From IMG/VR virus record IMGVR_UViG_3300029319_007471, positions 1-54,471 of that record: a stretch of 54,471 bases of DNA. One strand, 5' to 3'. Numbering within the stretch: position 1 is the stretch's first letter; the number at the start of each line of letters is the position of its first letter. Position numbers and translations under genes: made by a program. This DNA comes from a virus. Lineage: Duplodnaviria; Caudoviricetes. Below are positions 1,389 to 40,976 of the stretch, piece after piece. Below the pieces are notes generated by a model that was not told the origin of the DNA, ran no database searches, and was given only the letters and a program-made list of their open reading frames with translations.

Positions 1389-4300
1389 TTAAATAATCTC
1401 CTTATCCTAAAGCTATTGCTAATGCGGTCGCATCATCAACGGTTGCGAAACCTGAGCCAGTAAACGAACCTGAAAATGACCCACTTGCTGATGATAAATA
1501 TAAACCACCTACAATTTCGTTATTTCCCTGAGAATCCACTTTTAAACTAGCGGATGTAATTGTTAAACTACCCGTTGATTCGATTGAGCCAGTAAATCTA
1601 TGTATATCATCTTGCGTATCACCTAATTTTGTGCTACCACTGGCAAAAATAATTGATGCACTTACAAATTCTGTGTGGAATTCTCTGGCTGTGATTGAAC
1701 CTGATGTCGAAATATTGCCACCGACCTCTAAGTTACCTGTTACATCTAAATCTGTAAAGGCTAGTGTCCCTTGCACTTTATCAGCAACCACCAATGAACC
1801 AAATGAACCTGTTGAAGTTATCGAGCCACTTACGTTTCCAGCCTGAATTGTGGTCGATGATATATTTGTAGCGGTTAATGTCGCTCCGCTAAATGTTAAA
1901 TCTGAATCCTCTGATAGTAATCCGTTGCTACCATATATTGCTACACGTCCAGAAGTCTGATTATCGGCGGTGAGAGTATTTGCTCTAAATCCATGTGCGC
2001 CAATATCTAAATTTCCTCCAGCAGTTAAGGTTACGATATTACTCAACGTACCACCAACGGCGTTAACATTTGTTACGTTTAGAGTTCCAAATGAAGCTGT
2101 TGAAATAAGTGAGCTACTAACATCTCCTATCAACTCTAAAGTTGAACCGCTACCATTTATTTTTACGTTACCAAATGAACCAGTCGATAGTAATGAACCA
2201 CTAACGTTGGCTGCGTTCACAACCGCCGAACCACTAATCAATGTATTTAACGCACTACCTAAAGTTACCAAACCAGTTGCTGAGGTTATTGAATTTTGTG
2301 TGGCGGTTTGTATGGTTCCAAATAAATCTGTGCTTGTAACTTTTCCAAATGAGCCAGTTGAAATTAGTGAGCTAGTTAGATTACCAACTATCTCTAACGC
2401 TTTTGAACCCGAATCATTGATAATCGCTCTTCCGAATGAACCTGTTGAGGATATTGAACCACTTATCTTAGTTGCGCTAATATTTGCTAGAATGTCACCA
2501 TCATCTTTTACAATGACATCGCCACCATCAGCATTTAATTCTATATCTCCAGCCACATCAACAGTCAAATCACCTGTGCTTAAATCTATTTCGGTTCCGT
2601 CTATCGTAATATTATCTATGGTGACTCCACCATCAAACTTAGCCGATGGTGCTTCGAAATCGACGCTTGAAGTTATTGTCGTTCCTATGTGTCTGTATTT
2701 GATGTTTGCTACGCTTCCTCCGTCACCAAATAAAATACCTGACCCATCTATATCTGAACTATTTGTGCTTCCGCTTGACACCGTTATGGTCGCCGCCTGA
2801 ACATCCAATCCAGCGACCGTATTGTTTGTTGTTGTACCGACAACAGTTAAGTTACCTGCGATAGTTACATCACTACCTGAGAAAATTGTTTCCTCAACCT
2901 TAACCCTAGCATTAGTTGAGACAATCTGAAAATCATTAGATGCGTGGTCAGCTGTTAAATTACCACTTATTGTTTGACTACCATTTACATCTAAATTACC
3001 ATCAACAATTACCCCACTCAAAGTTCCAAAATTACCTCTACCAAACGATGCGCTTGATAATGATGAGCCAGTTATATGACCTATCATTTCTATAGCTGAT
3101 GCTGAATTGATTAATATCAATTTACCAAAAGAGCCAGTTGATGTTAAGGAACCGCTCACATCAGCAGCGTTCACAACCGCTGAACCACTAATTAAGGTAT
3201 TAAGTGAACTTCCTAAAGTGACTAAACCAGTAGCGGATGTAATGGAATTCTGAGCTGCTGTTTTTATTGTTCCATATACTTCCGTACTATTAATGTTTGT
3301 GGCGTTTACTGCGCCAAATGAAGCCGATGATATTAAGGAACTAGATACATTTCCAATCATCTCAATCGCTGGTAATGAACTCGAACCAGCTAAAATTATT
3401 CTACCAAAAGAACCAGTTGATGTTAGTGAACCACTAACTTTTGTGGACGATATGTTTAATAGTGAATCACCATCATCCTTTATATTTACGTCTCCTCCAT
3501 CAGCATTTATCTCAACATCACCATCGACATCTATTGTTAAATTGCCTGAGGATAAATCTATTTCGGTTCCATCTATTGTGATATTATCAATCGTTACCCC
3601 ACCATCTGCGTCTAATGAACCAACTGATACCGCGCCTGGAGTGACAATCGAACCAAAGGATGCCGTTGATGTTAGTGAACCACTAACTCCCCCTACAGGT
3701 GTAACCGATAATAAAGAGCCTGTAACTTCTATCGAACCAGTAAATCTGTGAACATCATCCTGACTATCACCAAATTTATTACTACCACTAGCGAAAACAA
3801 CACTAGCGGATGTGAACTCTGTATGAAACTCCCTTGCAAAAACAGAGCCAGATGTCGAAATATCTCCTGTGGCATTTATCGTTGTGGTCGTTAAAGTTGT
3901 ACTAACTAAATCTGTAGCTGTGACATCCGTTGCGTTTACATTTGTTGTGTTGAGTGTTCCAAAAGATGCGCTTGATATTAACGAACTTGAAACATCTCCA
4001 ATTAATTCTAAGCTTGAACCACTTCCATTAATTTTAACATTTCCGAATGAGCCAGTAGAAATGAGTGAACCACTTATGTTTCCTGAATTTATATTGGTAG
4101 CCGTTAAAGTATTTCCTGAAAATGATAAATCACTATCCTCTGTTAATAATCCATTACTACCATAGATAGCAACTCTTCCAGAGGTTTGTGCATCAGCAGT
4201 TAAAGTATTCGCTCTAAATCCATGTGCTCCAATATCTAAATCACCACCAGCCGTCAATGTTGTAATGTTTGTAAGTTCACCTCCAGCAGCGTTGACGTTT

Positions 4301-5930
4301 GTGACATTAACCGACCCAAATGATGCGGTTGAAATCAAAGAGCTAGATATATTACCGATAGCCTCAATGCTTGAACCGCTACCTAATAAATTTACAGTTC
4401 CAAATGAACCTGTTGATGTTAGAGAACCACTTACGTTGGCGGCGTTGACCACCGCTGAACCACTAATGAGAGCATTTAAATCACTACCTAAGGTAATCAA
4501 ACCTGTGGCTGATGTTATAGAATTTTGAGTAGCAGTTTTTACTGTTCCATAAAGTTCAGTAGCGTTAACGTTAGTAACGTTTGCTGCGCCAAATGAAGCG
4601 CTTGATATTAATGAACTACTTACGTTTCCAATCATTTCTATCGCAGAAGCTGAACCCACTAAGTTAAGTTTACCAAAAGAACCTGTAGAGGTTAAGGAAC
4701 CACTAACATTAGCTGCGTTTACAACCGCCGAACCGCTTATTAAAGCATTTAAAGAACTTCCTAAAGTTACCAAACCTGTGGCTGATGTTATAGAATTTTG
4801 TGCGGCGGTTTTTATCGTTCCATAAAGTTCGGTAGCGTTAACGTTAGTAACGTTTGCTGCACCAAATGAAGCGGTGGAAATCAACGAACTACTCACATCA
4901 CCTATTAATTCTAAAGTTGAACCACTACCATTAATTTTTACATTTCCGAATGAACCAGTCGATAGTAATGAACCACTAACTTTTGTTGAGGATACGTTTA
5001 ATAATACAACGTCATCATCCTTAACATCTACACTACCACCATCAGCGTTCAACTCAATATTACCATCCACATCAATGGTTAGATTACCGCTACTTAAATC
5101 TATTTCAGTCCCATCAATTGTTATATTATCAATCGTAACACCACCATCAGCATCTAAACTTGTTGCTGTGGTCGCCCCTAATGTCGTAGCACCTAATGTG
5201 GATTGACCTGGTACAACTAATGAACCAAATGAGGAGGTTGATATTAACGAACCACTAACCCCACCACCGACAAATTTAACAAAACTGGCGCTTAACTCAC
5301 CTCTAAATGAACCACTAATATCACTAGCTAACTGTGCTGAACTACTAACTAATGTTCTTAATCCACTCTCATCTTGCCCTTGCGAATTTTGACCTGTATG
5401 GATAGCCCAACCCATAAATTGGTGACTTGAACATTGATAATAAATTATTTGTGGACTATCTTTGTCAATCTTTAAAGTGATTACATTTCCAGCGACCGAT
5501 ACGTGACTGCTTGGGTCATATTGTGTTGTTTTAGCAGCATCAAAGTAAAATCTTATTGGATGAGAGGAGGCCCCACTATAATCAAATTTATAATAACCCT
5601 CAGTTAAATATAGGAAAGGAGTTTCAACCCCATCAATAACATATCCATTACCTGAACCGCTATCATAGTATGGATGGTTTGTTGTTTTGGATGCGGCTAA
5701 TGCAGTAAATGTATGAGCACTACCTGGCGCTATGACTGGTCCCTCTGATGCTCTAGCTAAGTAATTAAACCCTTTAACTGGCTCTCTACTTAACTCAAAA
5801 CTGCCTGAACTCTCTATTGAGCCTGTAAATCTATGAACATCATCTTGGGTATCACCAAATTGTGTCGAACCGCTTGAAAATATTATTGATGAATTTACAA
5901 ACTCTGTTCTAAATTCTCTAGCTATTATAG
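230..5930 (-). repeat. Interspersed protein-module repeats shared by the two fibre genes
   Basis: Approximate copies. Module A (AREFxTEF...GDxxDDxHRFTGSIE): 230-345, 1575-1690, 3725-3840, 5810-5925. Module B (DGGVTIDNITIDGTEIDLS...NADGG): 2500-2635, 3470-3610, 5010-5150. Module C (TAxQNSITSATGLxTLGS...VSGSLxSTGSFG): 2175-2310, 3130-3265, 4400-4540, 4675-4815. Module D (LTAGGxLDIGAHGFRANTLTAD...EDSDL): 415-560, 1880-2030, 4115-4260. Confidence 0.9.
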
Positions 5931-6204
5931 ACCCGCTGGTTTCTATATTGCCAGATACTTGTAAATTACCTGTGGCTCCTATGTCCCCAACTACTCTCAG
6001 GCTTTCACCATTTAATTGGGTGGTTCCAATACCAACTCCACCATCGGCATAAATCGTGCTTAAAGAAGATGTTCCAACTGAATCTATGGCAGAGCCAGAG
6101 TCTACTAAAGTTAATCTACCAAAAGAGGCAGTAGATGTTATAGAGCCAGTTACATTACCTACTTTTAAACTACCTGTTAATTGTTTACCTTTGATAATAG
6201 CCAT
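1402..6204 (-). CDS. 1600-aa modular Ser/Gly/Thr-rich virion fibre or appendage protein
   Basis: Many S[TS][GA]SFG units and four larger repeated modules; C-terminal DDATALAIALG; downstream of the neck genes. Confidence 0.8.
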   Translation of the reverse strand: MAIIKGKQLTGSLKVGNVTGSITSTASFGRLTLVDSGSAIDSVGTSSLSTIYADGGVGIGTTQLNGESLRVVGDIGATGNLQVSGNIETSGSIIAREFRTEFVNSSIIFSSGSTQFGDTQDDVHRFTGSIESSGSFELSREPVKGFNYLARASEGPVIAPGSAHTFTALAASKTTNHPYYDSGSGNGYVIDGVETPFLYLTEGYYKFDYSGASSHPIRFYFDAAKTTQYDPSSHVSVAGNVITLKIDKDSPQIIYYQCSSHQFMGWAIHTGQNSQGQDESGLRTLVSSSAQLASDISGSFRGELSASFVKFVGGGVSGSLISTSSFGSLVVPGQSTLGATTLGATTATSLDADGGVTIDNITIDGTEIDLSSGNLTIDVDGNIELNADGGSVDVKDDDVVLLNVSSTKVSGSLLSTGSFGNVKINGSGSTLELIGDVSSSLISTASFGAANVTNVNATELYGTIKTAAQNSITSATGLVTLGSSLNALISGSAVVNAANVSGSLTSTGSFGKLNLVGSASAIEMIGNVSSSLISSASFGAANVTNVNATELYGTVKTATQNSITSATGLITLGSDLNALISGSAVVNAANVSGSLTSTGSFGTVNLLGSGSSIEAIGNISSSLISTASFGSVNVTNVNAAGGELTNITTLTAGGDLDIGAHGFRANTLTADAQTSGRVAIYGSNGLLTEDSDLSFSGNTLTATNINSGNISGSLISTGSFGNVKINGSGSSLELIGDVSSSLISSASFGTLNTTNVNATDVTATDLVSTTLTTTTINATGDISTSGSVFAREFHTEFTSASVVFASGSNKFGDSQDDVHRFTGSIEVTGSLLSVTPVGGVSGSLTSTASFGSIVTPGAVSVGSLDADGGVTIDNITIDGTEIDLSSGNLTIDVDGDVEINADGGDVNIKDDGDSLLNISSTKVSGSLTSTGSFGRIILAGSSSLPAIEMIGNVSSSLISSASFGAVNATNINSTEVYGTIKTAAQNSITSATGLVTLGSSLNTLISGSAVVNAADVSGSLTSTGSFGKLILINSASAIEMIGHITGSSLSSASFGRGNFGTLSGVIVDGNLDVNGSQTISGNLTADHASNDFQIVSTNARVKVEETIFSGSDVTIAGNLTVVGTTTNNTVAGLDVQAATITVSSGSTNSSDIDGSGILFGDGGSVANIKYRHIGTTITSSVDFEAPSAKFDGGVTIDNITIDGTEIDLSTGDLTVDVAGDIELNADGGDVIVKDDGDILANISATKISGSISSTGSFGRAIINDSGSKALEIVGNLTSSLISTGSFGKVTSTDLFGTIQTATQNSITSATGLVTLGSALNTLISGSAVVNAANVSGSLLSTGSFGNVKINGSGSTLELIGDVSSSLISTASFGTLNVTNVNAVGGTLSNIVTLTAGGNLDIGAHGFRANTLTADNQTSGRVAIYGSNGLLSEDSDLTFSGATLTATNISSTTIQAGNVSGSITSTGSFGSLVVADKVQGTLAFTDLDVTGNLEVGGNISTSGSITAREFHTEFVSASIIFASGSTKLGDTQDDIHRFTGSIESTGSLTITSASLKVDSQGNNEIVGGLYLSSASGSFSGSFTGSGFATVDDATALAIALG

Positions 6205-10876: not shown

Positions 10877-12499
10877 TTAGACGAAGTTGACATCAGCAAC
10901 AATGACCTTACCATAGAACTCTGACCTTACCATTTTCTTAGCGTAACGAGTCATCACACCTTTACGTGGAGTAAAGTTGGTTGGGTCGTACACTAATGGA
11001 GTCATAATTAACGGTACATATGGTGCATACACAGCTCCAGTTTCTAAGAACGAAGAACCACGGAAACCGACGAGAATCTGATTCTCTGTCATGTATGGGT
11101 TCTTGTAAACTGTGAATCTATTGTTTAATAGTCCTACTTTTTGAACTCCCATTGCGTAAGTTCTAGCAGAAGCATCACCTGTTGAATCAGAAGCGTATCC
11201 TGGAATTGACTCAATGATAGTTGCTGTCTCTGGTGAAACCACCATAAAGTTAGCACCACCTCTTAGAGTTTTCTGATGGATAGCATTTGATACCGCTTGT
11301 ATTTTGTTTCCAAGAGTTTGGAACCAAGTGTTCTTTGTGTAAGCGTTAGAATTACCTGAGGATGCGGGACCCGCTTCATCAAATAGGCCGGTAGCTGAAT
11401 TGAATTCAAAACCAACTCTAGTTGACCATCTCTCAGTCTTAGCAGTTGCAGAAGCCATCAACATATCAAGTATTTCTAAATCAATTTCCATTGAAATATA
11501 TTCACTTAACATTGAAGTAAGTTCTGCTTCAGCGTCTACTGAGTGATAAGCATTAAGGTCTTGCGCAAGTTCAGGAGTCCAGACTGCTTTCAACTTTCTT
11601 GTTTTAGCAACAATAGGAATTGAACGCATTGCAATATCAACTTCTGGAATACCTGCATCTGACTCAGCGCCTGTTCCACTTGGAGTAGCTTCGAAGTCAC
11701 CACGAGTAATATCCGTTGGTTGTTTATGATACTTAACAGTATAAGATCCTGAATAATCAGTCAAGTCTGCTGGTTGAACGATGAAAGTGATATCACTTCC
11801 AGTTACTTTTGTATGTGCTGGGAAGAACGATGTAAGTTCTGTTCCTGCACTACCACTAATTTCAAACGCACGAATACCTTCTAAATCAGGATTTGTTAAT
11901 GCTGACTGAGCGACAGTAATTTTTCTCAAGTTAGATAGAGAAGCACTAAGGCCTGGCTCAAAGTCAACATCTTGGAATGATACAGAAGATGAGGCAGCTG
12001 ATGCGGTACTTACAGTATCGCTAGCGTCGTTAATAGAATATCCAAAACGACCAGCTCCATATAAACCTTCTGATGCATCACCTGATGCTGAGGTAACACC
12101 ATGCAAATTTTCACCTACGTCAAAATTTGATTGGTTTGTTCCGTATTTGAAATCAAGATAGAAAATCAGACCTGATGGTAGATTCATAGGCTGAACAGAT
12201 ACGAAATCTTGTGCAGCTAATTCACCAAAGATTCTTCTTACTAAAGGAAGAGCGACACCTGACCACTGCTCATTGTTAGCAGCTGTTCCAGCTGAACTAG
12301 CTTCGTCAATTAACTGACGAGCTTGGTTCTCAAGTAGAACTGCCATACCGTGAGTCTGTGTTTCAGAACCCATTCCCTCTAACAAACCAGTTGGTTCCCA
12401 TTTTTTAACGAGTTGTCTAGTTTGCTCAAGAAGTTGTCTTTGTGGATTATATCCATCCATCAAATCGGATATTGAGTTAAATGTACTTTTGTCTGACAT
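10877..12499 (-). CDS. gp23: Major capsid protein (T4 gp23 family)
   Basis: LLENQ, LPLVRR, VQPMNLPSGLIFYL, AKTRKLKAVWTPELAQDLNAYH, DAEAELT, YAPYVPL, FTPRKGVMTRYA. Confidence 0.97.
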   Translation of the reverse strand: MSDKSTFNSISDLMDGYNPQRQLLEQTRQLVKKWEPTGLLEGMGSETQTHGMAVLLENQARQLIDEASSAGTAANNEQWSGVALPLVRRIFGELAAQDFVSVQPMNLPSGLIFYLDFKYGTNQSNFDVGENLHGVTSASGDASEGLYGAGRFGYSINDASDTVSTASAASSSVSFQDVDFEPGLSASLSNLRKITVAQSALTNPDLEGIRAFEISGSAGTELTSFFPAHTKVTGSDITFIVQPADLTDYSGSYTVKYHKQPTDITRGDFEATPSGTGAESDAGIPEVDIAMRSIPIVAKTRKLKAVWTPELAQDLNAYHSVDAEAELTSMLSEYISMEIDLEILDMLMASATAKTERWSTRVGFEFNSATGLFDEAGPASSGNSNAYTKNTWFQTLGNKIQAVSNAIHQKTLRGGANFMVVSPETATIIESIPGYASDSTGDASARTYAMGVQKVGLLNNRFTVYKNPYMTENQILVGFRGSSFLETGAVYAPYVPLIMTPLVYDPTNFTPRKGVMTRYAKKMVRSEFYGKVIVADVNFV

Positions 12500-15682: not shown

Positions 15683-15918
15683 GACTTTATTTTCCATTTT
15701 TCAAGTTTATCTAAGAATTCTGTAATGGTGTAATTCTTTTTTCGTTCATCAATTATAGATATATCCTCTAACATTTGCGGTTCTTGATTAATGATTCTAT
15801 TTAGTAAAGTAAAACCTAACGCCTGATAAAAAACTCCAAAACTCTCCTCACCTATTATGTTTGGTTCATAAATGGTGTCACCCTCATTATCGCTTTTATG
15901 TAATAAATAATATATCAT
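15679..15918 (-). CDS. Hypothetical protein
   Basis: 79-aa ORF coupled by ATGA overlap to the upstream epimerase. Confidence 0.6.
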   Translation of the reverse strand: MIYYLLHKSDNEGDTIYEPNIIGEESFGVFYQALGFTLLNRIINQEPQMLEDISIIDERKKNYTITEFLDKLEKWKIKS

Positions 15919-16823
15919 TTAGAATCCCCAATTAAAGTCTTAATATATGTTTCTAAGTCATGAGTTGGTTCCCAATTTAATAAATCTCTTTCTATTTTAG
16001 ACTCACATAAAGTTTCTCTCATTTCCCCATCACGCGCAGGAATGTATTTCTTTGGATAAGATTCTCCAAACATATTAGCTAACTCATTTATAGAATAATT
16101 TTTACCACAACCAAATTCAAATTCTAAACCGTTAATTTGTTCGAAGTTTACATCAGATAATCTATCACCACATTTAATTAATCCGTCAACGATATCATTG
16201 ACGTGGGTGAAATCTCTCCTTTGTTCCCCATCATCGGTAATTGTAAGGGGTTCATTTTTAAAAAATTGATTTTCAAAAATTGGTATCACTAATGAATATG
16301 GGCCTTCATAAATCATATTTGGGCCGTAGACATTATAAAATCTACAAATTGACATTCTGACATTAAATAATTTATGATACATCTTAAACATCAATTCACT
16401 TTGCCATTTAGTAAATGTGTAAGGGTTAGCGTATTTATCTCCGTGTATTGAGCTAGTCCCTGCGAACACCACAGGTATGTCTTTATCTTTTGCCCAATCT
16501 AGTATATTCTGTGTAGATATTACGTTTGACTTAAAAACCTCATTTGGATTTTCAAATGATGCTTGTATTCGTGGTAGAGCTGCTAAATGAAAAATAACAT
16601 CAACTTTAGGTTCGTACAATCCATAAGATTCCTGTATAAACCCACCACTTTTACGAGTTGTATCACCCAAATCGACATTTCTGTAATCACAACCTTTTTG
16701 TTCATTTTTCTTTAAACCAGTTGAGTAATTATCTAAACTAACTACATCGTGCCCATCATTAATCAATCGTTTAATTAAGTTAGTTCCAATAAAACCAGCT
16801 CCTCCAGTCACTATATATCTCAT
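15915..16823 (-). CDS. NAD-dependent epimerase/dehydratase (extended SDR)
   Basis: VTGGAGFIG, HLAA, YTFTK (YxxxK), RFYNVYGP, RDFTHV; start placed at 16823 (TAATG coupling). Confidence 0.9.
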   Translation of the reverse strand: MRYIVTGGAGFIGTNLIKRLINDGHDVVSLDNYSTGLKKNEQKGCDYRNVDLGDTTRKSGGFIQESYGLYEPKVDVIFHLAALPRIQASFENPNEVFKSNVISTQNILDWAKDKDIPVVFAGTSSIHGDKYANPYTFTKWQSELMFKMYHKLFNVRMSICRFYNVYGPNMIYEGPYSLVIPIFENQFFKNEPLTITDDGEQRRDFTHVNDIVDGLIKCGDRLSDVNFEQINGLEFEFGCGKNYSINELANMFGESYPKKYIPARDGEMRETLCESKIERDLLNWEPTHDLETYIKTLIGDSK

Positions 16824-17494
16824 TAACCAACACCTTTCCAAGTTGCACCACCATCAGTATAATGATGTTTGCAAATTAATTTTGAGTCATAATAAATTCC
16901 ATCTCCGTTTTCTATTCTATCATTAGCCCAATATCTATCTTCTTTACCACTTAGTCTTTCATCAAACGGAAATTCTTCTAAATAATCTCTTTTATAAATT
17001 GCAAATGCGTTATGTAAAAAATACCTATTTTCAGCATCACAAAAATAATTCCAACTATCTTTATCTTTGAAATTACTCCATATGTAACGTGGAGTTACTC
17101 TTTTACCATCCCAAACTGGTATTTGTTTTCCCCATATGCAAGCCACCTTATTATTGATAGTTTTTTTATAATCGAATGCATTTATGACATTATCAATATC
17201 AAATTCAACTAACTCACAATGTGATGAAAAAATTAGTATAATTGAATTGGTAGCCTCTTTGACCCCAATGTTCAAACTTTTACCTGGCGTATAATCATCG
17301 TTATTAATGTGTATTTTTTTGATATTCATCCAATCGAAAGTATTTACAACTCTAATTGAATTATCAGTAGAGTTATTATTAAGTAATATTATTTCAGGCT
17401 CATATAAGAAATCATCTAAAGATTGTAGACAATGACCAATATATCTTTCTTCATTTCTACATCTTAGTATTACCGATATTTTTTGTTTCAACAT
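16823..17494 (-). CDS. Glycosyltransferase family 2
   Basis: ISVILRCRNEERYI, NNNSTDNS, LNIG, FDERLSGKED. Confidence 0.85.
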   Translation of the reverse strand: MLKQKISVILRCRNEERYIGHCLQSLDDFLYEPEIILLNNNSTDNSIRVVNTFDWMNIKKIHINNDDYTPGKSLNIGVKEATNSIILIFSSHCELVEFDIDNVINAFDYKKTINNKVACIWGKQIPVWDGKRVTPRYIWSNFKDKDSWNYFCDAENRYFLHNAFAIYKRDYLEEFPFDERLSGKEDRYWANDRIENGDGIYYDSKLICKHHYTDGGATWKGVG

Positions 17495-17503
17495 TTTTTC
17501 TTC

Positions 17504-18334
17504 CTATTTTATATCATCTAATAATAACATTAAAGTTGAAAGTGATATTGCTTGGTCAGCATCACTAATAGATTTTGGTGGGTTTGGATGTGATTCAATA
17601 ATCAAACCATCCGCTCCAGCCGCGATAGCTGCTTTAGAAATAGCAGGTACAAAGTTTCTATATCCAGTCGCGTGACTTGGGTCATAAATAATTGGAATAT
17701 CACATAATTCTTTTAGTGCGGGTATCATCATTAAATCGGGTGCCCATCTAATAGATGGAAACACGTGACGATAAGATGGCATACCCACCACACCTCGTAA
17801 ACAGATAGCGACCTTTTCATTACCACCAACTAATATTCTTTCAACAGCGCCTAATATCTCATCTATAGTTCCCCAAGTGCCACGTTTTAAAAGAATAGGA
17901 ACATCTAATTCACCAAGTGCATCTAATAAGGTATAGTTTTGAAAGTTACGAGTTCCTACCTGAACTATATCAATACAATCCATTGTGGAACCTGTAATCT
18001 GATATGCATCCATAATTTCAGATACAATAGGTAGTCCAGTCTCCTCTCTGGCTGTTTTAAGAAATCTTAAACCATCTTCTCTTAGTCCCTCTTTCCAACC
18101 GTTACTACCGACCTCTTTAGTTATCGGATATGTGCATGGTTTATATGCACCACCCCTTAACGCGTTAACACCGACTCTCTTCATTTTTTGTGCCCAATCA
18201 ACTATCATTTCTTCGGACTCCACAGAACATGGGCCTGAGATAATATAGGGATTTTCTTCAAACTGCCACCTATTTGGTGATATTGAGATGGATAACTTAT
18301 CTTGTTCGGATAACATTTTTATATAATCGTTCAT
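17504..18334 (-). CDS. DAHP-synthase class I-beta-like aldolase with variant active site
   Basis: GPCSVES, LRGGAYKPCTYP (canonical KPRTSP), QVGTRNFQNY, LLKRG, DPSHATG, GADGLIIESHPNP. Confidence 0.85.
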   Translation of the reverse strand: MNDYIKMLSEQDKLSISISPNRWQFEENPYIISGPCSVESEEMIVDWAQKMKRVGVNALRGGAYKPCTYPITKEVGSNGWKEGLREDGLRFLKTAREETGLPIVSEIMDAYQITGSTMDCIDIVQVGTRNFQNYTLLDALGELDVPILLKRGTWGTIDEILGAVERILVGGNEKVAICLRGVVGMPSYRHVFPSIRWAPDLMMIPALKELCDIPIIYDPSHATGYRNFVPAISKAAIAAGADGLIIESHPNPPKSISDADQAISLSTLMLLLDDIK

Positions 18335-18912
18335 TTTTTACTCTTTATGTTTATTTCTGCTTGTTTTAAATCATCTTCGCTATGGATATTTGTACAATCA
18401 TCTAAGTGACTACCAACTCTACGACTCATAACGCCATGTTTTACAAATCCAAATTTTGTAATTCTAACACCACCATTTCTAGTCCCATCAGAGTTTACTG
18501 TGACTAAATCATCATATTTATTTTTTACAGAGTAAGTTAGTAAATCATCTACATTTGTATTTCTATCAGGATGGTCTGGCTGTATTCCAACAACGTGAGT
18601 TATATCTTTTAATATTTCTGGTGATGATTCCTGAACAACATTAACGTAAACATCAGCTACCTCTCTTTCACCCATATAACTTTTATCCCTATCACGTAAT
18701 ATTATATTATCGTATTTTTTTGTTATATCTTTAACTTCATCGGACTCTGTTGTAACTATAATGCGTTTAATTAAATTGCTATTTTTAGCGTAATCTATGG
18801 CGTGTTCTACAAGTGTTTTACCAGCGATTACCCTCAAATTTTTTTTCTTCAATCTAGTGGAATCGGTTTTAGCAGGTATAATAGCTAATCCACAAATATC
18901 TTTTGTATTCAT
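18331..18912 (-). CDS. Acylneuraminate cytidylyltransferase-like (NeuA/PseF family)
   Basis: IIPAKTDSTRLKKKNLRVIAGKTLV, IQPDHP, NIHSEDDL. Confidence 0.8.
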   Translation of the reverse strand: MNTKDICGLAIIPAKTDSTRLKKKNLRVIAGKTLVEHAIDYAKNSNLIKRIIVTTESDEVKDITKKYDNIILRDRDKSYMGEREVADVYVNVVQESSPEILKDITHVVGIQPDHPDRNTNVDDLLTYSVKNKYDDLVTVNSDGTRNGGVRITKFGFVKHGVMSRRVGSHLDDCTNIHSEDDLKQAEINIKSKK

Positions 18913-19871
18913 TTTATTCCTTTAAATTTATTTATTGCCCAATGATAAGCCTTTGTTTGACCCTCAATAGTCATACCACCAATATGAGGTGTTATTACAA
19001 CATTGTTGTTGGGTTCAATTGAAAACTCTACCAACTTACTATTTCTAAAATCACCAAACTCATCTTTTATGACATCCGTGCCGTAACCTTTCAAATGTCC
19101 TTTTTGTATCGATTTAATTATTGAACTCTCATCTACCAATTCTCCTCTGGCAGTATTAATTAAATAACTTCCTTTTTTCATATTACCTAAAAATTTATCA
19201 TTAACCATATTTCGTGTTTCGTCGGTTACGTGTGTATGTAAAAAAACTACATCAGATTTTTTAAGTAACTCTTCTAAACCAACACCCTTAGCATTAGTTA
19301 TTCTGGCGTATGGGTCAGTAACTAAAACATCTACATCCCAACCATCAAACAACCTTTTCATTATTTTACCAAGTCTACCATAACCTATGATACCAATCGT
19401 CTTACCTTTTATTTGATGTCCAACGTAAGGTTCGTAATCCCAATTACCATCTTTAACAGAATGAAATGATGATGGTATGAATCTTAATAACGACATCATC
19501 AATCCAAACGCTAACTCTGAAGTTGATGGTAAATCGTTTATTAGTTCATAATCTTTTTTTAGAGACCAAACCTCTATGTTATTTTTTTTACAAAAATCTA
19601 AATCAATATGATTAAGACCAGTTGAACAGGTGTTAATAACTTTTAAATTTGAATTTATCAAAACTTCCTCATCCAAAATAAAATTTTGTTTGTTGGGATT
19701 TGTAAATAAGTATTCTGCTTGAGTCTCAAATAAAGTTTTTTTTAGTGATTTTTTATTTATCTCTGGCTCATATAACACATTACCAAAATTTGAAATTAAG
19801 TCAAAAGCTCCATTTAAATGTTTAATTGGCGTTATACAAATTATGTTAATCTGTGAATTCTGAGTTTTCAT
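18909..19871 (-). CDS. D-isomer-specific 2-hydroxyacid dehydrogenase
   Basis: TGLNHIDL, GIIGYGRLG, LINTARGELVDE, ITPHIGG. Confidence 0.9.
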   Translation of the reverse strand: MKTQNSQINIICITPIKHLNGAFDLISNFGNVLYEPEINKKSLKKTLFETQAEYLFTNPNKQNFILDEEVLINSNLKVINTCSTGLNHIDLDFCKKNNIEVWSLKKDYELINDLPSTSELAFGLMMSLLRFIPSSFHSVKDGNWDYEPYVGHQIKGKTIGIIGYGRLGKIMKRLFDGWDVDVLVTDPYARITNAKGVGLEELLKKSDVVFLHTHVTDETRNMVNDKFLGNMKKGSYLINTARGELVDESSIIKSIQKGHLKGYGTDVIKDEFGDFRNSKLVEFSIEPNNNVVITPHIGGMTIEGQTKAYHWAINKFKGIK

Positions 19872-24942: not shown

Positions 24943-25727
24943 AAAGTAACCCTTTCAATTGACTCATGCGCTGGATTTGTTTCAGATATTATTTTAAAAT
25001 CAATATTTTTAGACATTAACCATTCATTCAAAAACTTCGTGCTTTTAATTACTGTTTCTGCCTCATGCTTATTTGTTGGTGTTGGTGCATAAACAATATT
25101 AGATTTACCCTCATAAGAATGTTTTTGAAAACTATCATCATAGGGGTCATCTTTGAAAGAATTCATATCAGCTATATCCCAACCTAAAGTTGTTATAGAC
25201 TTAACGCCTAAATGTTCTGCCAAGTGGATAGCGGTTTGAAACATTATGCCCGGCCCATACCAACGAGTTAAAGTTTTATCCAAAGTATATTTATCCCAAC
25301 TATTCTCTCCACATTGTGATTTTAAGTTTTTCTCAATGGTATCAGGTATTCTATTACCATCTATAGGTAACATAATGTCACATCTAATATTATTATCTAA
25401 AATCATTTTAGGATGAAAGTGTTCATATACTTCCCAAACAACAATTGTGTTAGATGAGTAATTTTCATAAGGTTCGTAATTAGCAAAATTGAGCACGTGG
25501 AAATCAGTAACATCCATAAAGTTTTTTATTGATTGTTTTAAAGATATGATGATTTTGTCTTTTAGTTTTTCCTTAACGTAATTTACATCGTAATTATTTA
25601 GGGACGGGCCAGCGGCTAGAATAAAACAATCCTCTGTATCATAATAGTCCTTTAGGCATTCAACCCTATCAGGTATATCTTCAAACTTTTTTATTTTAGA
25701 TAATAATGTTTTATTTTTTTCTATCAT
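24939..25727 (-). CDS. Maf / DUF115-like putative CMP-sugar transferase
   Basis: CFILAAGPSL, AIHLAEHLGVKSITTLGWD, H-x-Y; adjacent to kdsB. Confidence 0.65.
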   Translation of the reverse strand: MIEKNKTLLSKIKKFEDIPDRVECLKDYYDTEDCFILAAGPSLNNYDVNYVKEKLKDKIIISLKQSIKNFMDVTDFHVLNFANYEPYENYSSNTIVVWEVYEHFHPKMILDNNIRCDIMLPIDGNRIPDTIEKNLKSQCGENSWDKYTLDKTLTRWYGPGIMFQTAIHLAEHLGVKSITTLGWDIADMNSFKDDPYDDSFQKHSYEGKSNIVYAPTPTNKHEAETVIKSTKFLNEWLMSKNIDFKIISETNPAHESIERVTL

Positions 25728-26518
25728 TATCTGATACCACTTTTTCTTTTATCTGTAATTTGAGAATAAATTTGTTGTTTTCTGAATATCTTTTCAACCT
25801 CTGATACATCCTCTGGAAAATCAACGGCTAAAGTTCCACCTTCAACTCTAACCATCTTTACTCGCTTACCCATCTCTAAAAATCTGATAATCTCTATATC
25901 CTCAGATAACTCTGCTGGTGTCTTACCACTATCCTTACCTCTCTCAAAATAAGTTTTTAATTCATCTTTATTAAAAGCGTATACACAAACCTGCTTGAAT
26001 GCGCTTTTCACAATACCATTTTTACTTGATGGTATAGCGTTTCTAGACACATACATTAATTCATCATTGAGATTAGTGGCTACTTTACAGGTTTTCAAAT
26101 CATTTGGGTCTTCGGATGATGTTAACTTAGCCATACAGGTAACGACTGAATTACTATTCTTAATTTTTTCCTTAACAACTTGCACAATATCATTAGGATT
26201 TAAAAGAGCTTCATCACCTTGCACATTAACAAATATATCAGCATCGATTTGTAACGATGCTTCAGCAACTCTATCGGTGCCTGTTAAACAATCTTCAGAG
26301 GTTCTTACAACATTATAATTATATTCTTTTACTTTATCCTCTATCCTATCATCATCGGTAGCAACAAAAACATTTTCTTTTCCAACCGCTTTACTTGATA
26401 AGTCAGCTACCCTAACAACCATAGGTTTACCCAATATATCAACCAAAGGTTTACCTGGAAATCTGGTCGATTTATATCGTGATGGAATAATTACTACAAC
26501 TTTTTTATTAAATTTCAT
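25727..26518 (-). CDS. kdsB: 3-deoxy-manno-octulosonate cytidylyltransferase
   Basis: IIPSRYKSTRFPGKPL, VATDD, TGTDRVAE, VNVQGDE, YVSRNAIP, EDIEIIRFLE, AVDFPED; start placed after a GGAGA RBS. Confidence 0.9.
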   Translation of the reverse strand: MKFNKKVVVIIPSRYKSTRFPGKPLVDILGKPMVVRVADLSSKAVGKENVFVATDDDRIEDKVKEYNYNVVRTSEDCLTGTDRVAEASLQIDADIFVNVQGDEALLNPNDIVQVVKEKIKNSNSVVTCMAKLTSSEDPNDLKTCKVATNLNDELMYVSRNAIPSSKNGIVKSAFKQVCVYAFNKDELKTYFERGKDSGKTPAELSEDIEIIRFLEMGKRVKMVRVEGGTLAVDFPEDVSEVEKIFRKQQIYSQITDKRKSGIR

Positions 26519-26520
26519 CT

Positions 26521-27261
26521 TTATCTCCATTTAGTAATTTCGTGAAAACTATCATACAAAACTTTGGTGTCCACACCATAGGTCAAAAAGTTCACTCCAA
26601 TACTTTGAAACTTTTTTAATTCATTTTTGTTATGAAAAAGACATCCGACACTCTTTTTTGAATCCCTTATTATTTTAGTAGTTTTTTCTAAAATATTAAA
26701 CACATCCTTATGATTGGTTGATTTTCCTAAAGTTTGTGCTATGTCATACGTGCCCACATAAACTAAATCAATAAACTCATTATCAACGATACTCTCAACG
26801 TTTCTTAAACCCTTTATATCTTCAATAATAATACCAACTATACTTTCTTGATTAATAACATCGGTAGATTTTTCATCTTTCATTTTTCCAAAATCTCCAC
26901 CACGAATGTAAGGTGAAAATCCTCTATCACCTAAAGGATGATATTTAGCCGCTTTAATAATTTTTTCAACATCTCCCATCTGTTTGACGTGAGGGACTAT
27001 TATACCGTTACAACCCGTATCTAAAGATGTGGATATTAAGTAATCTAAATTTTTAGGAACCCTAATCAAACCATTACACCAATTTGTTTGTGCAGCTGTA
27101 ACCATTTGTTGTGCTGTTTTTAAATCAATCGCTCCGTGCTCCATATCAACAATAACGAAGTCCAAACCAGCTTTGGTCAGTAAATCAACAACCTCAGGTG
27201 ATGGTAATATACACCAGGTTCCTATAACTTCCTTTTGTTCTTTTAATAATAACTTAAGCAT
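26521..27261 (-). CDS. HpcH/HpaI class II pyruvate aldolase
   Basis: GLDFVIVDMEHG, LDTGCNGIIVPHV, YHPLGDRG, IIE, YVGTYD. Confidence 0.9.
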   Translation of the reverse strand: MLKLLLKEQKEVIGTWCILPSPEVVDLLTKAGLDFVIVDMEHGAIDLKTAQQMVTAAQTNWCNGLIRVPKNLDYLISTSLDTGCNGIIVPHVKQMGDVEKIIKAAKYHPLGDRGFSPYIRGGDFGKMKDEKSTDVINQESIVGIIIEDIKGLRNVESIVDNEFIDLVYVGTYDIAQTLGKSTNHKDVFNILEKTTKIIRDSKKSVGCLFHNKNELKKFQSIGVNFLTYGVDTKVLYDSFHEITKWR

Positions 27262-27637
27262 CCATAACCTCTAAAAATTTCAAAGTATTTTTTTGAGACA
27301 ACACATCACCAAAACCTAAAACTTTATCATCGATATAATAATCCGCCATTATTTTTGGACTATAACCTGATAACTTCTTTTGGTTGGGTAGATTTTCATT
27401 AACAGCATCAAATTCTAAACCTCTTTCCTTACACCATTCGACTGCTTCGGTTAGAACAGGATATTCCTCGTTATCACCCCTATTTGTCCAAAGTATTAAC
27501 TTATGTCCTTCATCTCTTAATTTAATTAATGTTTTCAATAGTTTTTTATGATTTTCTGTTTGTTTTCCTATTTTTGGAAAATCAAACTCACATAACGTAC
27601 CATCAAAATCAACTGCGAATGTAAGTTTTTCCTGCAT
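27254..27637 (-). CDS. Small HAD-family phosphatase
   Basis: AVDFDGTL, LILWTNR, ADYYIDDK; start placed after AGGAGAAGG. Confidence 0.85.
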   Translation of the reverse strand: MQEKLTFAVDFDGTLCEFDFPKIGKQTENHKKLLKTLIKLRDEGHKLILWTNRGDNEEYPVLTEAVEWCKERGLEFDAVNENLPNQKKLSGYSPKIMADYYIDDKVLGFGDVLSQKNTLKFLEVMDA

Positions 27638-28733
27638 AACCTTCTCCTTTATTGATATTACTATCAACAAGATTCTTTCCTATTAAATAAGCCTGTTTTA
27701 TATTATCATAATCTTTATAAAAATTATCATCGTCATAGGAATAATTTGTTTTTATCCTATCATAAATTAGATTTCTAGCAAATGTACCCACCGCAACTCC
27801 CTGAAATCTTACATCACCTTGCACTGCTAAATCGGCTGTTAACGTATTGGTTCCGCCTGATAATACGACGTTTAATTTTTTTCTTCTCGTATATTGTAAT
27901 TGTTTAGTTTTTTTATTTAACCTCATATTGAAATTTTTATTTACCACATCCGCAGTAGCAACTGCCTGTAATGTAGTATTGAAATCATCTTGTCCGCCAC
28001 TCATAGGATACCCATCGGCTTGTAAAATCATTAAACCAGGCTTTGTCATCTCTAAAGCTTTTTCTATTCTATTTTTTAACTCAAAATTACCAATATGTAA
28101 CCTATCTAAACACATACTATTGTGACCATCAGGATTTGATTTAATAACGGTTTCCCACTCTTTCATTATTACATCCGTTTCGGCGACAGCCGCGTGTAAC
28201 TCAATGTTTTCTGCTCCTAACTCTATACAATGAGGTAAAAGTTCCTCTAACAATTTATCATTGTGACTATAAGTTATACAATCCATAATCGGACAAACAG
28301 CGCTACAAGCACCACAACCAATACATTTTTCCTCTATTACAAACGCTGTTTCAACTTTTATTTCGATAGGTTCAATAGCTACAGTCGGACATACCGGCGC
28401 CACACATAGACCACATTTAATACATAAATCTTCGTGAATATATGCTTTTCTAACGTGGTGGTCGCCAGGCATACCAACGCTAATCATTATAAAAGGTTTG
28501 ATTCCAATATCTATGTTTAATTTATGAGCTATCTCATAAGCCCTATTAATACCATCAACAGCAGCTAAGACAACGGATGGTGTTGTTGATATGTCCAATC
28601 CTTTTGCACCTGCTAAGGTATAAATCATAGCTAGTCTTCTAACCTCTTCAGTATCCTCATTCCCAGCACCACATATCATTTTAAAATATTGTCCTGTATC
28701 CAAAAGGTTTTGTAATTCTAATGTTCTATCCAT
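27609..28733 (-). CDS. LdpA-like 2x[4Fe-4S] protein
   Basis: FKMICGA, YTLAGA, HHVRKA, CIKCGLC...CP, CIGCGACSAVCP, IELH, QADGYPMSG, LSGGTN, GVAVGTFAR: the motif order recalled for cyanobacterial LdpA. Confidence 0.8.
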   Translation of the reverse strand: MDRTLELQNLLDTGQYFKMICGAGNEDTEEVRRLAMIYTLAGAKGLDISTTPSVVLAAVDGINRAYEIAHKLNIDIGIKPFIMISVGMPGDHHVRKAYIHEDLCIKCGLCVAPVCPTVAIEPIEIKVETAFVIEEKCIGCGACSAVCPIMDCITYSHNDKLLEELLPHCIELGAENIELHAAVAETDVIMKEWETVIKSNPDGHNSMCLDRLHIGNFELKNRIEKALEMTKPGLMILQADGYPMSGGQDDFNTTLQAVATADVVNKNFNMRLNKKTKQLQYTRRKKLNVVLSGGTNTLTADLAVQGDVRFQGVAVGTFARNLIYDRIKTNYSYDDDNFYKDYDNIKQAYLIGKNLVDSNINKGEGYAGKTYIRS

Positions 28734-29515
28734 TATACTCTTTCATCTAATAAGCTAGCTCTGTTTAAATATGAATTACCAATGTTCATATAGTAAGATG
28801 ATTTTGACCTCAACCAAAGTGATTCAAAGGTTATAGCATTTTTAATAGCCTCAGATAAATTATTGATATTATTATCATCTAATTCAAACACCACATTTCT
28901 AGTTTCTATCTTATCTAATAAGTTTTGTTTGTATAATTTTCTCACAAAATCAACACTATCAACCGATATGCTACCACCCATAATCGTATTTAATTTATAC
29001 TCTTTTGCCTGTTCAAATACATCCCTAACAATGTTAAATATCTCATCATCATTTACATTACTTTTTGTTAGTCCAAATGATTTACATAAATCAGAGCGAC
29101 CTAATACTATCCCATTAAGATACCTACAATAATTCGAACTAATTATATCAGTTATATTGTCGTATGCTGTTTTACTTTCTATATTAACATAGCATTTAAT
29201 TTTTTGTCTAAGTTGTGGTGTTAAGTTGTCATCTAATGAAGTAATAAACTTCTCTAATGCAAAAGGTGATTCAACCATAGGAGCGACCATACCATCAACA
29301 TTTAAGACTAAACAATTGTTAATATCACTAATAGCTTCACATCCACCTATTTTCATATTAAGGAAAATATCTGTGCTCAAACAAAGTTGTCTAAGCTTTA
29401 TTAACTCTTCAAATTTAACACCTTCATCTTCAAAAGATGATTTTATTCCAACGACATTGTAATCGGACTTTAAACTTTTTAGTGTATTCAATAATTCTTT
29501 ATGATTGTAAATCAT
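28733..29515 (-). CDS. HpcH/HpaI aldolase / citrate-lyase family protein
   Basis: KSSFEDEG, KIGGCEA, VAPMVES, NIES, VLGRSDL, MGGSI, ETRNV. Confidence 0.75.
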   Translation of the reverse strand: MIYNHKELLNTLKSLKSDYNVVGIKSSFEDEGVKFEELIKLRQLCLSTDIFLNMKIGGCEAISDINNCLVLNVDGMVAPMVESPFALEKFITSLDDNLTPQLRQKIKCYVNIESKTAYDNITDIISSNYCRYLNGIVLGRSDLCKSFGLTKSNVNDDEIFNIVRDVFEQAKEYKLNTIMGGSISVDSVDFVRKLYKQNLLDKIETRNVVFELDDNNINNLSEAIKNAITFESLWLRSKSSYYMNIGNSYLNRASLLDERV

Positions 29516-30268: not shown

Positions 30269-31187
30269 TTATTTTTCCTTTTATAAATTTATTTACTTCC
30301 TCTCTATAATGTTTTTGTGCGACAACTCTAAATTTTTGTTTGAATTCATCACTATTGGTTAAATCAGCTATGTATGGTAGATACGGATTTAAATCCCTAT
30401 ATTTTCTATTCTCACAGACTAACATATTATCTAAAATATATTGATTAATATCGTAACCTGATTTTGACATAATACCAGCACATTCAAAAATAAATGTATC
30501 GTCTAATCCATAGGAGCCAAATGAATCTGGTATGTCAATGTACTTTAACAAATTTGAGCTAAACAAATTAAACCAACCACCACCAAACTTAAAGTCATTT
30601 AATTTTTTTATCTTTACTTCACTTAAATAGTTGTAAACCTCAGAATCTAAGCCGTAAGGGTCATACTTCAACCATATTTTTGATTCGATGCCCATAGGTA
30701 TGTATCTATCATTTGAAATGATATTCCAACCATCATCCCATAGCCTTAAAATTTGCGAGTTTAGAATATAATATTCGTCCTTTATATTATCTAAGGCTCT
30801 AAACATATAAGCTAAATTAAATTGTGAGAAAAAGACATCAGTATCTAAATACATAAAATTTTTCGGATTATATTCTCTTATGCTATTTCTTCTTTTGTCG
30901 TTTATACCCAAACATCTATTACTTTCACCATCATTTATCTCAAAAATATTTTTGTATGTCCAATCGGATTTCGATTCCATAACTTTATACTTTTCAACAA
31001 AGAAATCCTTTGGTAATTTGCTAGCGTTCCAATCCGTATAATAATCTGATAAATTTAAGGTAAAATCTAATACAACTTTGTCGTTTTTTTCTAAATAATG
31101 ACTAGATATCTTTAATTGATTTACTATTCTTTCTAAGTCATCTATTTCACGCGGTAAACAATGTAATATTATATGAATATCATTCAT
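30261..31187 (-). CDS. Putative GT-A glycosyltransferase
   Basis: FMYLDTDV (DxD), GGGWFNLFS, YGLDDTF. Confidence 0.55.
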   Translation of the reverse strand: MNDIHIILHCLPREIDDLERIVNQLKISSHYLEKNDKVVLDFTLNLSDYYTDWNASKLPKDFFVEKYKVMESKSDWTYKNIFEINDGESNRCLGINDKRRNSIREYNPKNFMYLDTDVFFSQFNLAYMFRALDNIKDEYYILNSQILRLWDDGWNIISNDRYIPMGIESKIWLKYDPYGLDSEVYNYLSEVKIKKLNDFKFGGGWFNLFSSNLLKYIDIPDSFGSYGLDDTFIFECAGIMSKSGYDINQYILDNMLVCENRKYRDLNPYLPYIADLTNSDEFKQKFRVVAQKHYREEVNKFIKGKINE

Positions 31188-31795
31188 TTAAGTATCGTTG
31201 GTTTAAAGTTATCTTTTAAAAACTCCCAACATTGTCTTTCTGCTGATATTTTGTGGTGGCCATCTTTAAATTTATCGTAAAAATACTCTGTAGTCCTATC
31301 ATCTGTTTTTGAAAAGTAATGTCCAAATTTATATTTGTCATTGTAACCATCAAAACCAACTAAAGTTACATCCATATCGAAACATTTTAATATATGATAA
31401 GTACCTATTAAGCCAGTTGAAGGCCAACCACCCCCAAACTCAGCTTCTCTTTTTAAATTTGTTTCTACACTGGTTGGAATAAACACTAACTTTTCTGGAT
31501 ATTTATCATATTGATTTTTAATTCGTTGAACCTCTGACTCCCATTTAAAAGCTGGTGTGCCTATTAAAATGTAAGCAGTATTTTCAAATAATTCATCGGA
31601 CATATATTCATCAGTCATAAATCCATCATGCACAATCAATATATCGGTTCTACTACCAACATTTTTTTCGTATCCGTCAATACCTTCAAAAAAACCCCTA
31701 TTCATACGACAAACTAAATCAAATTTATCAATTTGTTTCCCGTATTCATTATCTAACATTGATGAACCGTTTCCAACTATAACCAATTTTTCCAT
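31184..31795 (-). CDS. GT29-like sialyltransferase
   Basis: Sialylmotif L-like VIVGNG...GKQIDKFDLVCRMN...VGSRT; motif S-like PSTG...GF; HY; H-x4-E. Confidence 0.8.
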   Translation of the reverse strand: MEKLVIVGNGSSMLDNEYGKQIDKFDLVCRMNRGFFEGIDGYEKNVGSRTDILIVHDGFMTDEYMSDELFENTAYILIGTPAFKWESEVQRIKNQYDKYPEKLVFIPTSVETNLKREAEFGGGWPSTGLIGTYHILKCFDMDVTLVGFDGYNDKYKFGHYFSKTDDRTTEYFYDKFKDGHHKISAERQCWEFLKDNFKPTILK

Positions 31796-39273: not shown

Positions 39274-40193
39274 TTTATTACTCCTAATAATTCTATTAAC
39301 ATAGCCATCGCATTGATTTCTTTATCAACCACTTGACCATCTGAAAGTTCGTATCTGGCTATTATCAATATACACTCTGCCACGTGACCAGCACCCCAAC
39401 TATCAACCTCATCATATAATAATCTAAATAAATCTGCAAAATCAGTTATCTTATTATCAGCTAATAATTGTCTTATTTCTTTGAATGCGTCTTTCTTTGG
39501 TTTTGTTTTTAATATTTCTAATAACTTAAGTTTGTAATCATTTTGTATAATACTTTTAGTATCTAACTTTAGTTCATTGTTAACGATATTTCTTTGTGCT
39601 GAATTAATAACCCTACGGATATCAGGATATCCACTTTCTATCAATACCTTCAAATCGTCAATGTTACTATTAATATTTTCTTTAACCAAAATATTGTGAA
39701 GATGTTTTGCCACATCACTTTTGGATGGAGGGATTATCTGGAAAGATTGACATCTACTTTGTATTGGGTCAATAATTCTTTCAACATAATTACAAGTCAA
39801 AATAAACCTACAATGTTTTGAGAATGTTTCCATAAGGTTACGAAGAGCGGCTTGTGCGTTTGGTGTAATATAATCACACTCATCTAAGATAATCACTTTC
39901 ATATCTTTGAAACCGATGGTAGATGCGAAGTTCTTAACTTTGGTTCTTACGGTTTCAACGTTATTCTCATCCGATGCGTTGATATAAAGATAATCACATT
40001 CTATATTATTTACTAACAATTTTGCGAGAGTGGTTTTACCTGTACCAGCCTTACCATATAGTAGAAGATGTGGCAAGTCCCCACTCTCAAGATAAATAGA
40101 CACCTTACTTTTTAGATGCTCATTACCAATGTAGGTGTCTAGATTGGAAGGCCGATATTTTTCTACCCATAGAGTATTAGTTGAATGATTCAT
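39270..40193 (-). CDS. gp44: Clamp loader AAA+ subunit (gp44 / RFC-like)
   Basis: LWVEKYRP, GKAGTGKTT, INASDE, ILDECD, SRC. Confidence 0.95.
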   Translation of the reverse strand: MNHSTNTLWVEKYRPSNLDTYIGNEHLKSKVSIYLESGDLPHLLLYGKAGTGKTTLAKLLVNNIECDYLYINASDENNVETVRTKVKNFASTIGFKDMKVIILDECDYITPNAQAALRNLMETFSKHCRFILTCNYVERIIDPIQSRCQSFQIIPPSKSDVAKHLHNILVKENINSNIDDLKVLIESGYPDIRRVINSAQRNIVNNELKLDTKSIIQNDYKLKLLEILKTKPKKDAFKEIRQLLADNKITDFADLFRLLYDEVDSWGAGHVAECILIIARYELSDGQVVDKEINAMAMLIELLGVIK

Positions 40194-40941: not shown

Positions 40942-40946
40942 AACTG

Positions 40947-40976
40947 AATATAATAAAAAAAGCCAATATAAGTCAA
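40947..40976 (-). promoter_or_regulatory. Sigma70-type promoter, probably giving a leaderless transcript for the Mom-like gene
   Basis: A-tract-GGC-TTGACT-18 nt-TATATT, then 5 nt to the ATG, with no RBS. Confidence 0.65.

Follow-up and report, generated by a model that had tools for sequence, protein, structure and literature searches.

The window analysed here, the whole 54,471 nucleotides of the virus record IMGVR_UViG_3300029319_007471, is a 54-kb fragment (estimated completeness 20%) of a large T4-like marine phage genome, assigned as such because a Gp23 major capsid protein and a T4-type DNA polymerase are encoded on it. Within a glycosylation island of ~20 kb it carries a conserved unit of four genes, encoding a 2-hydroxyacid dehydrogenase, a cytidylyltransferase (CT), a synthase with the fold of 3-deoxy-D-arabino-heptulosonate 7-phosphate (DAHP) synthases and a GT2-family transferase that lacks the DxD motif. 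Comparative sequence analysis indicates that the synthase and the CT probably form an ulosonic acid from an aldehyde other than erythrose 4-phosphate (E4P) and then activate it with cytidine monophosphate (CMP). In the synthase slot of this cassette two unrelated enzymes, the DAHP-type synthase and NeuB, have been exchanged repeatedly.

The cassette and its DAHP-synthase-like enzyme

All genes of the cassette lie on the minus strand: the D-2-hydroxyacid dehydrogenase at 18909..19871 (320 amino acids; PF02826, PF00389), the CT, a minimal CMP-ulosonate synthetase of the NeuA/KdsB family, at 18331..18912 (193 amino acids; PF02348), the class I-beta DAHP-synthase-fold PEP:aldehyde synthase (PEP, phosphoenolpyruvate) at 17504..18334 (276 amino acids; PF00793 and structure alignments) and the GT2 transferase, a probable CMP-sugar transferase, at 16823..17494 (223 amino acids; PF00535). 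An SDR nucleotide-sugar epimerase/dehydratase follows at 15915..16823 on the same strand (302 amino acids from the ATG at 16823; PF01370). The dehydrogenase and CT genes overlap by 4 nt, as do the CT and synthase genes; 9 nt separate the synthase from the GT2, and a single base belongs to both the stop of the GT2 and the ATG of the epimerase. This arrangement bears out the initial annotation, which described five tightly coupled genes at 15915..19871, but not its inclusion of the epimerase in the pathway. A close homologue of the epimerase adjoins the GT2 gene in just 2 of 17 cassettes with the DAHP-type synthase and 9 of 38 with NeuB, counts that rule it out as a core gene; it is a common island gene, loosely linked to the cassette.

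The synthase matches PF00793 with 166 bits and has the (beta/alpha)8 DAHP_synth_1 fold. Its structural model (pLDDT 91) is closest to 1ZCO, with TMq values of 0.82-0.83 and 38-39% identity to class I-beta enzymes, and automatic annotation names it 3-deoxy-7-phosphoheptulonate synthase. It has the TIM-barrel, metal site and PEP Arg/Lys residues of the unregulated class I-beta enzymes of Pyrococcus furiosus (1ZCO) and Aeropyrum pernix (1VS1), and differs from them in a KPCT[YF] motif, two loop inserts and linkage or fusion to a CT rather than to shikimate/aromatic genes. C36, H221, E247, D258, R60, K65, R129, K150 and R180, which from the structural literature we take to be the Cys/His/Glu/Asp metal site and the PEP-binding Arg/Lys residues, are held by 122-129 of 129 KPR[TS] representatives. 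The retention of metal and PEP motifs noted in the initial annotation therefore extends to all nine residues, and these are kept in 119-120 of the 120 best homologues (of 7998 scored, E≤0.001).

Alignment to 1VS1 and 1ZCO places KPRTS, the aldose-phosphate motif of class I-beta DAHP synthases, at K65-P-C67-T-Y69 and CERG at C-L179-R180-G. The first replacement, already recognized from the window alone, holds throughout the same 120 best homologues, all with C67 and a KPCT[YF] motif. The second is equally present but fails as a sign of altered specificity, as Leu also occurs in 11 of the 129 KPR[TS] representatives. A further lost Arg, after DPSHxxG (Y225), was rejected as diagnostic since Arg is found there in just 46 of 129 representatives. 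The loop inserts comprise 8 residues after KPCTY and 6 after CLRG, the latter with an invariant R189-H190 (19/19 loci); T68 and Q132 are retained. In a study on Neisseria KdsA, the Arg equivalent to the one replaced by C67 (Arg58) contacts the phosphate of an inhibitor in simulation (PMC6650799). Values of dN/dS for seven pairs of synthase genes are ~0.05-0.09, indicating purifying selection, and both TGT and TGC are used for the Cys67 position. In an independent marine run, a contig with 1 difference in 1361 nt likewise spans the C67 codon.

Profile scores place the enzyme outside the curated families. It scores 234.2 on the DAHP synthase equivalog TIGR01361 (cut-off 267.75) and lacks KPRT(S). 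It also lacks the KANRS of 3-deoxy-D-manno-oct-2-ulosonate 8-phosphate (KDO8P) synthases (KdsA), scores 91.6 against 314 on TIGR01362 and lies apart from KdsA, which forms a separate group with 100% support; on the NeuB profile PF03102 it reaches 21.8 (threshold 22.1). The enzyme appears to perform a step like that of NeuB or KdsA, yet it has the defining motif of neither DAHP nor KDO8P synthases and does not belong to NeuB. In a quick KdsA-rooted tree of 80 synthases, a supported clade within class I-beta DAHP synthases unites those of the cassettes; the Arg-less sequences need 3 changes on this tree, which is also compatible with a single origin. One KPCTY synthase (P0125) has a C-terminal extension that by eye resembles the NeuB SAF domain, with no SAF call by Pfam.

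Genomic neighborhoods separate the KPCT variants from ordinary DAHP synthases. Close relatives of the synthase were found at 14 viral and 8 cell-labelled loci. A CT is present within the locus in 23/23 KPC/KPA rows (the window counted, with L002/L003 and L012/L024 as duplicates) vs. 0/77 KPR[TS] metagenome loci, 30 of which are flanked by 2.5 kb or more on either side. An Arg-less exception without a CT (L071) is on a contig of just 2.6 kb. Among the 120 long homologues listed, the top two (P0271, P0272) are CT-synthase fusions with KPCT, and the other 118 are KPR[TS]S proteins (117) or lack a motif match (one); most of the KPR[TS]S proteins carry chorismate mutase, prephenate dehydratase or regulatory domains. 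Other pairwise fusions within the cassette are GT2-CT (L021, L022), CT-dehydrogenase (L013, L016, L113) and CT-NeuB (L139). The neighborhoods, one of the checks that the initial annotation had proposed, and the CT-synthase fusions thus agree with its view that the synthase was recruited into a CMP-sugar pathway, as does the presence of NeuB in the same slot. Its remark that shikimate genes are missing nearby also holds: Pfam detects none among 55 scanned open reading frames (ORFs) of the window, and 3-dehydroquinate (DHQ) synthase is absent from this contig, which is ~20% complete.

The partner enzymes are likewise recognizable members of their families with altered details. The CT has the CTP_transf_3 fold with the N-terminal nucleotide loop, and the best Foldseek matches of its AlphaFold model (pLDDT 93) are CMP-N-acetylneuraminic acid (CMP-Neu5Ac) synthetases (TMq 0.86); QPDHP replaces the NeuA QPTSP. 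In many sister cassettes a CT of the ordinary-length NeuA type is found beside the same GT2. CMP-using GT-A sialyltransferases are not known to have a DxD motif. The GT2 scores 53.9 bits on PF00535 (cut-off 23.3), and alignment with TarS shows that DxD is missing in all 58 distinct GT2 sequences, replaced by S-x-H (SAH in 52, SSH in 5, SGH in 1), while KEDR is kept in 58/58. [quoted passage not shown] The dehydrogenase has the two-domain profile, GxGxxG and the complete catalytic triad R242/E271/H296, and members of its family (≥300 bits) are present in 16/17 DAHP-type and 33/38 NeuB cassettes. It does not reach the SerA (phosphoglycerate dehydrogenase, PGDH) equivalog TIGR01327 (164.6 vs. 454), a model built for a longer protein, and in a low-confidence alignment with 1WWK the Arg of the PGDH ‘VRS’ loop seems to be missing.

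Exchange of the synthase with NeuB

When the alignments served as queries against viral contigs, the GT2 yielded 66 loci and the CT 46, compared to 14 with the KPCT synthase. After collapsing identical sequences, the 58 distinct GT2 genes include 17 accompanied by a KPCT synthase and 36 by a complete short NeuB (262-281 amino acids). The other 5 comprise a NeuB cut by the contig end, a CT-NeuB-SAF fusion and three with no synthase in view, two of these at contig ends and the third in the L011 phage, where the synthase lies at the locus edge. KPCT synthase and short NeuB never occur together (0/58 cassettes); 8.7 kb from the KPCT-type cassette of L016 lies a full-length NeuB in a module of its own. 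Six short NeuB proteins that were tested match PF03102 and have no SAF domain, and both DGR and PGRDN are present in 37/37 short NeuBs.

Loci L196 and L205 have opposite synthase types. Their five downstream genes are 90-99.7% identical, and their dehydrogenases, CTs and GT2s are 93%, 80% and 67% identical, respectively. On a GT2 tree of 53 rows, which left out the three cassettes without a synthase, the NeuB fragment and the CT-NeuB-SAF fusion, synthase type must change 11 times, and supported branches force at least 9 of the changes. Trees made with a quicker method show 8 changes (5 forced) for the dehydrogenase (49 rows) and 3 changes, vs. 12.6 when shuffled, for the CT (42 rows). An enolase-superfamily enzyme and a second 2-hydroxyacid dehydrogenase are additions or replacements in some cassettes (L013, L016, L121, L229, L230); both kinds of enzyme act on the carbon alpha to a carboxylate.

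This natural swap of two unrelated PEP-aldose synthases in one cassette offers enzymology a comparison of substrate and face selectivity. It also places the cassette alongside the NeuB-NeuA-sialyltransferase pathways for Neu5Ac, 2-keto-3-deoxynononic (Kdn), pseudaminic (Pse) and legionaminic (Leg) acids, which follow the same logic of a PEP + aldose synthase, a CMP-synthetase and a transferase. Unlike those pathways, the cassette uses another synthase family, has no fixed epimerase, aminotransferase or acyltransferase, has a fixed 2-hydroxyacid dehydrogenase and employs a GT2 rather than a GT29, GT42, GT52 or GT80 transferase; the sister NeuBs are without SAF. The Kdo pathway (KdsD-KdsA-KdsC-KdsB) likewise feeds a CMP-transferase from a synthase of the class I-beta family, whereas the cassette synthase lacks KANRS and falls outside the KdsA clade, and isomerase and phosphatase genes are not fixed; some cassette carriers have true KdsA of the KANR type as a separate gene.

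A proposed pathway and its rivals

We propose that the four genes are a mobile ulosonic-acid cassette within a phage glycosylation island. The synthase would add PEP to an aldehyde other than E4P, giving a 3-deoxy-2-ulosonic acid (the job of NeuB in the sister cassettes), and the minimal NeuA-like CT would convert it to a CMP-sugar; these two steps are likely, the inference being strong. The DxD-less GT2 may then transfer the sugar to a virion or host-surface glycan, with moderate support. The aldehyde is perhaps unphosphorylated, because the motif Arg is lost and no phosphatase is fixed in the cassette: in our own limited seed set, a HAD phosphatase lies within 5 kb in 3/17 DAHP-type and 1/38 NeuB cassettes. 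SIS isomerases, counted with the same seeds in 1/17 and 1/38, are not fixed members either. The new R189-H190 could hold another anion.

The role of the dehydrogenase is the weakest part of the proposal. Because C2 must remain a ketone for CMP activation and glycoside formation, yet a 2-hydroxyacid dehydrogenase is fixed in the cassette, this enzyme might act beside a second carboxylate; in that case the aldehyde would be a sugar acid without phosphate, and a di-acid (ulosaric acid) like 3-deoxy-D-lyxo-hept-2-ulosaric acid (Dha) would result. Invariant basic residues could bind the second carboxylate, R189-H190 in the synthase and those of DGR and PGRDN in the short NeuBs. A di-acid product is a tentative assignment, less likely than not, and Dha itself is an improbable one; Dha is a natural ulosaric di-acid of this kind, tied to the cassette by chemical reasoning only. 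A 2025 review (PMC12168206) and PMC3355719 list the enzymes and nucleotide form of Dha as unknown, and a di-acid product would bear on Dha biosynthesis as treated in that review.

Several observations weigh against this proposal. A phosphate might still be bound by R189-H190 and by T68, which is retained, and a phosphatase could come from the host. Near the stand-alone Arg-less synthases (KPTTY; L019:7875-8744 and L020:7875-8744) of high-GC metagenome-assembled genomes (MAGs), which branch basally to the cassette clade, there is no CT, GT2 or dehydrogenase, so Arg loss alone need not mean CMP-sugar synthesis. The CT is without ~34 residues of the region through which NeuA dimerises, has TNIH at the position of the NeuA DID motif, with altered metal-site motifs, and scores below every NCBIfam cut-off. 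Its tree also tracks synthase type far beyond chance, which fits different products, and single-gene trees, built on short genes of recombining phages, show exchange but not its direction. As far as is known, DAHP-type and NeuB-type enzymes set opposite configurations at C4, and the same slot therefore need not mean the same sugar. For the cassette, one RNA run and one presumed-RNA run gave short contig fragments only.

Under one alternative the enzyme was recruited in the same way but kept its chemistry: it would make DAHP from E4P with the phosphate held on T68 and R189-H190, and a host or distant phosphatase would yield DAH for CMP activation and transfer. The fold and tree position within class I-beta DAHP synthases, the retained T68 and Q132, the invariant new basic residues and a HAD phosphatase ~9 kb away in the window all suit this route. 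We nevertheless consider it unlikely, as the Arg present in 129/129 KPR-selected representatives (by construction) and in 77/78 non-KPCT metagenome loci is replaced clade-wide, neither phosphatase nor isomerase is a fixed member, and the dehydrogenase and the NeuB swap are left unexplained. Under another, the dehydrogenase could reduce the 2-keto acid of the synthase to a 2-hydroxy-3-deoxy acid, the hydroxyl of which would be activated by the CT and installed as an ether by the GT2. This gives a D-2-hydroxyacid dehydrogenase beside a 2-keto-acid synthase its simplest role, would make synthase type matter less, and agrees with the atypical CT and GT2 and with the 2,4-dihydroxypentanoic acid ethers in Providencia O-antigens (PMC10609480). 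It too seems a poor prospect: the CT model is nearest to CMP-Neu5Ac synthetases, ordinary-length NeuA-type CTs accompany the same GT2, and no precedent is known to us for displacement of CMP from a non-anomeric carbon.

Two readings without a glycan product carry far less weight. That the gene is an ordinary DAHP synthase, an auxiliary gene boosting host aromatic amino-acid synthesis and in the island by chance, would agree with the existence of a phage DAHP-synthase family (phrog_5045) and with automatic names, and is highly improbable given its low TIGR01361 score (234 vs. 268), the CT fusions and linkage, the NeuB swap and the lack of DHQ synthase in five virus records and of chorismate synthase in four (0/5 and 0/4), one carrier being 90% complete. 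A dead or decaying copy might be expected to lose a conserved active-site Arg, as here; dN/dS below 0.1, invariant catalytic residues and a Cys encoded by both TGT and TGC make this more remote still.

Synthesis and CMP activation of an ulosonic acid by the synthase and CT would mean that glycan assembly has taken over a DAHP-synthase-fold enzyme originally of aromatic amino-acid synthesis, and that not every marine virome gene called ‘DAHP synthase’ is an auxiliary gene for shikimate. Expression of this small four-enzyme set could lead to a new acidic sugar borne by phages and bacteria that abound in the ocean. More speculatively, marine jumbo phages, SAR11 and picocyanobacteria may share an undescribed CMP-ulosaric (Dha-like) pathway in which DAHP-type synthases and SAF-less NeuBs are freely swapped, possibly flipping C4, with the DxD-less GT2 as the CMP-sugar transferase; we regard this combination as doubtful. 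If true, Dha-type biosynthesis would gain its first candidate genes and GT2 a subfamily that uses a monophosphate donor, and the C4 flip by synthase swap would be a source of glycan variation. We found no publication on the cassette or the KPCT synthase in a search that left most subscription literature outside, and the SugarBase supplements might list such a CMP-sugar.

Distribution and surroundings of the cassette

Sampled words of the window are present at half or more in 18 sequencing runs, 15 marine/seawater and 3 labelled just ‘metagenome’; one of the 18 may be the source of the window itself. In cells, the GT2 family occurs in 8/301 genomes of the family of L016 (record titled Pelagibacteraceae) and 6/301 of that of L018 (a Synechococcus record), all of these carriers being incomplete genomes. 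The synthase in these cell cassettes is of the KPCT type in G003 and G005 and a short NeuB in G280, G018, G161, G206, G260 and G364; G218, G134, G416, G320 and G306 have a sister Arg-less synthase (KPL[TS]F), and G422 has no synthase by the profiles used. KdsA is also encoded in the SAR11-like genomes G001 and G003 (KANR-type, together with a class II DAHP synthase for shikimate) and in G005 (together with a KPRT-type enzyme), so the KPCT variant is additional to the housekeeping enzymes. Five of 401 alphaproteobacterial genomes had a GT2 match, one with the same dehydrogenase family and a full NeuB and one with an HpcH-like aldolase. None of 201 Elusimicrobiota genomes had a match at E≤1e-35, a threshold that a known carrier likewise missed. 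Annotated phages and plasmids hold no close relative (best synthase 43% in phages; GT2 32% in plasmids, in an unrelated neighborhood; short NeuB 35% and 31%), and hence no cultured strain with a known glycan can be linked to the cassette.

The KPL[TS]F synthases (L233:7990-12866, L234:3233-9221, L246, L248 and L249; SAR11 and picocyanobacteria) have Asn (GPN) at the position of the metal Cys, resembling metal-independent KdsA. Four of the five loci combine the synthase with a CT, a shikimate-dehydrogenase-like gene, a GT2-CT fusion and a Gfo/Idh/MocA oxidoreductase; in L246 the GT2 is unfused and no CT is in view. These loci are a second, different cassette. The L229 contig (G018:C34) of a SAR11-family genome, carrying the cassette version with NeuB, an enolase and a second dehydrogenase, has flanks 78-88% identical to phage L006; it is possibly an infecting phage or a contaminant and a weak hint of host. 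Another cassette (L015) comes from a 3.3-kb contig assigned to an archaeal MAG; its GT2 is near-identical to that of phage L021, and the contig is probably viral and mis-binned.

A second acid-sugar module in the island of the window (25727..29515, minus strand; profile matches) encodes a KdsB-like CT, which scores above the PRK13368 cut-off, two HpcH-family aldolases, a BT0820-type HAD phosphatase and an LdpA-like Fe-S protein, with a GT29 sialyltransferase-like gene nearby at 31184-31795. Gp23 is encoded at 10877..12499 on the minus strand (PF07068, phrog_138), and the T4-like DNA polymerase is joined by a clamp. At 1402-6204 lies a 1600-residue protein without a Pfam match and with many ‘SGSxxSTGSFG’ repeats, probably a virion fibre or decoration protein; being rich in Ser/Thr, it is a candidate glycan acceptor. 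A scan for promoters and terminators gave no excess over shuffles (32 vs. 34.9 and 2 vs. 2.2, respectively). The window also encodes a Mom-like DNA modification protein and a DruA-like protein (40177-41016 and 48055-49248), an inosine monophosphate dehydrogenase (IMPDH)/GMP-reductase-like protein (50443-51450) and a peptide deformylase with a SEC-C tail (52229-52819).

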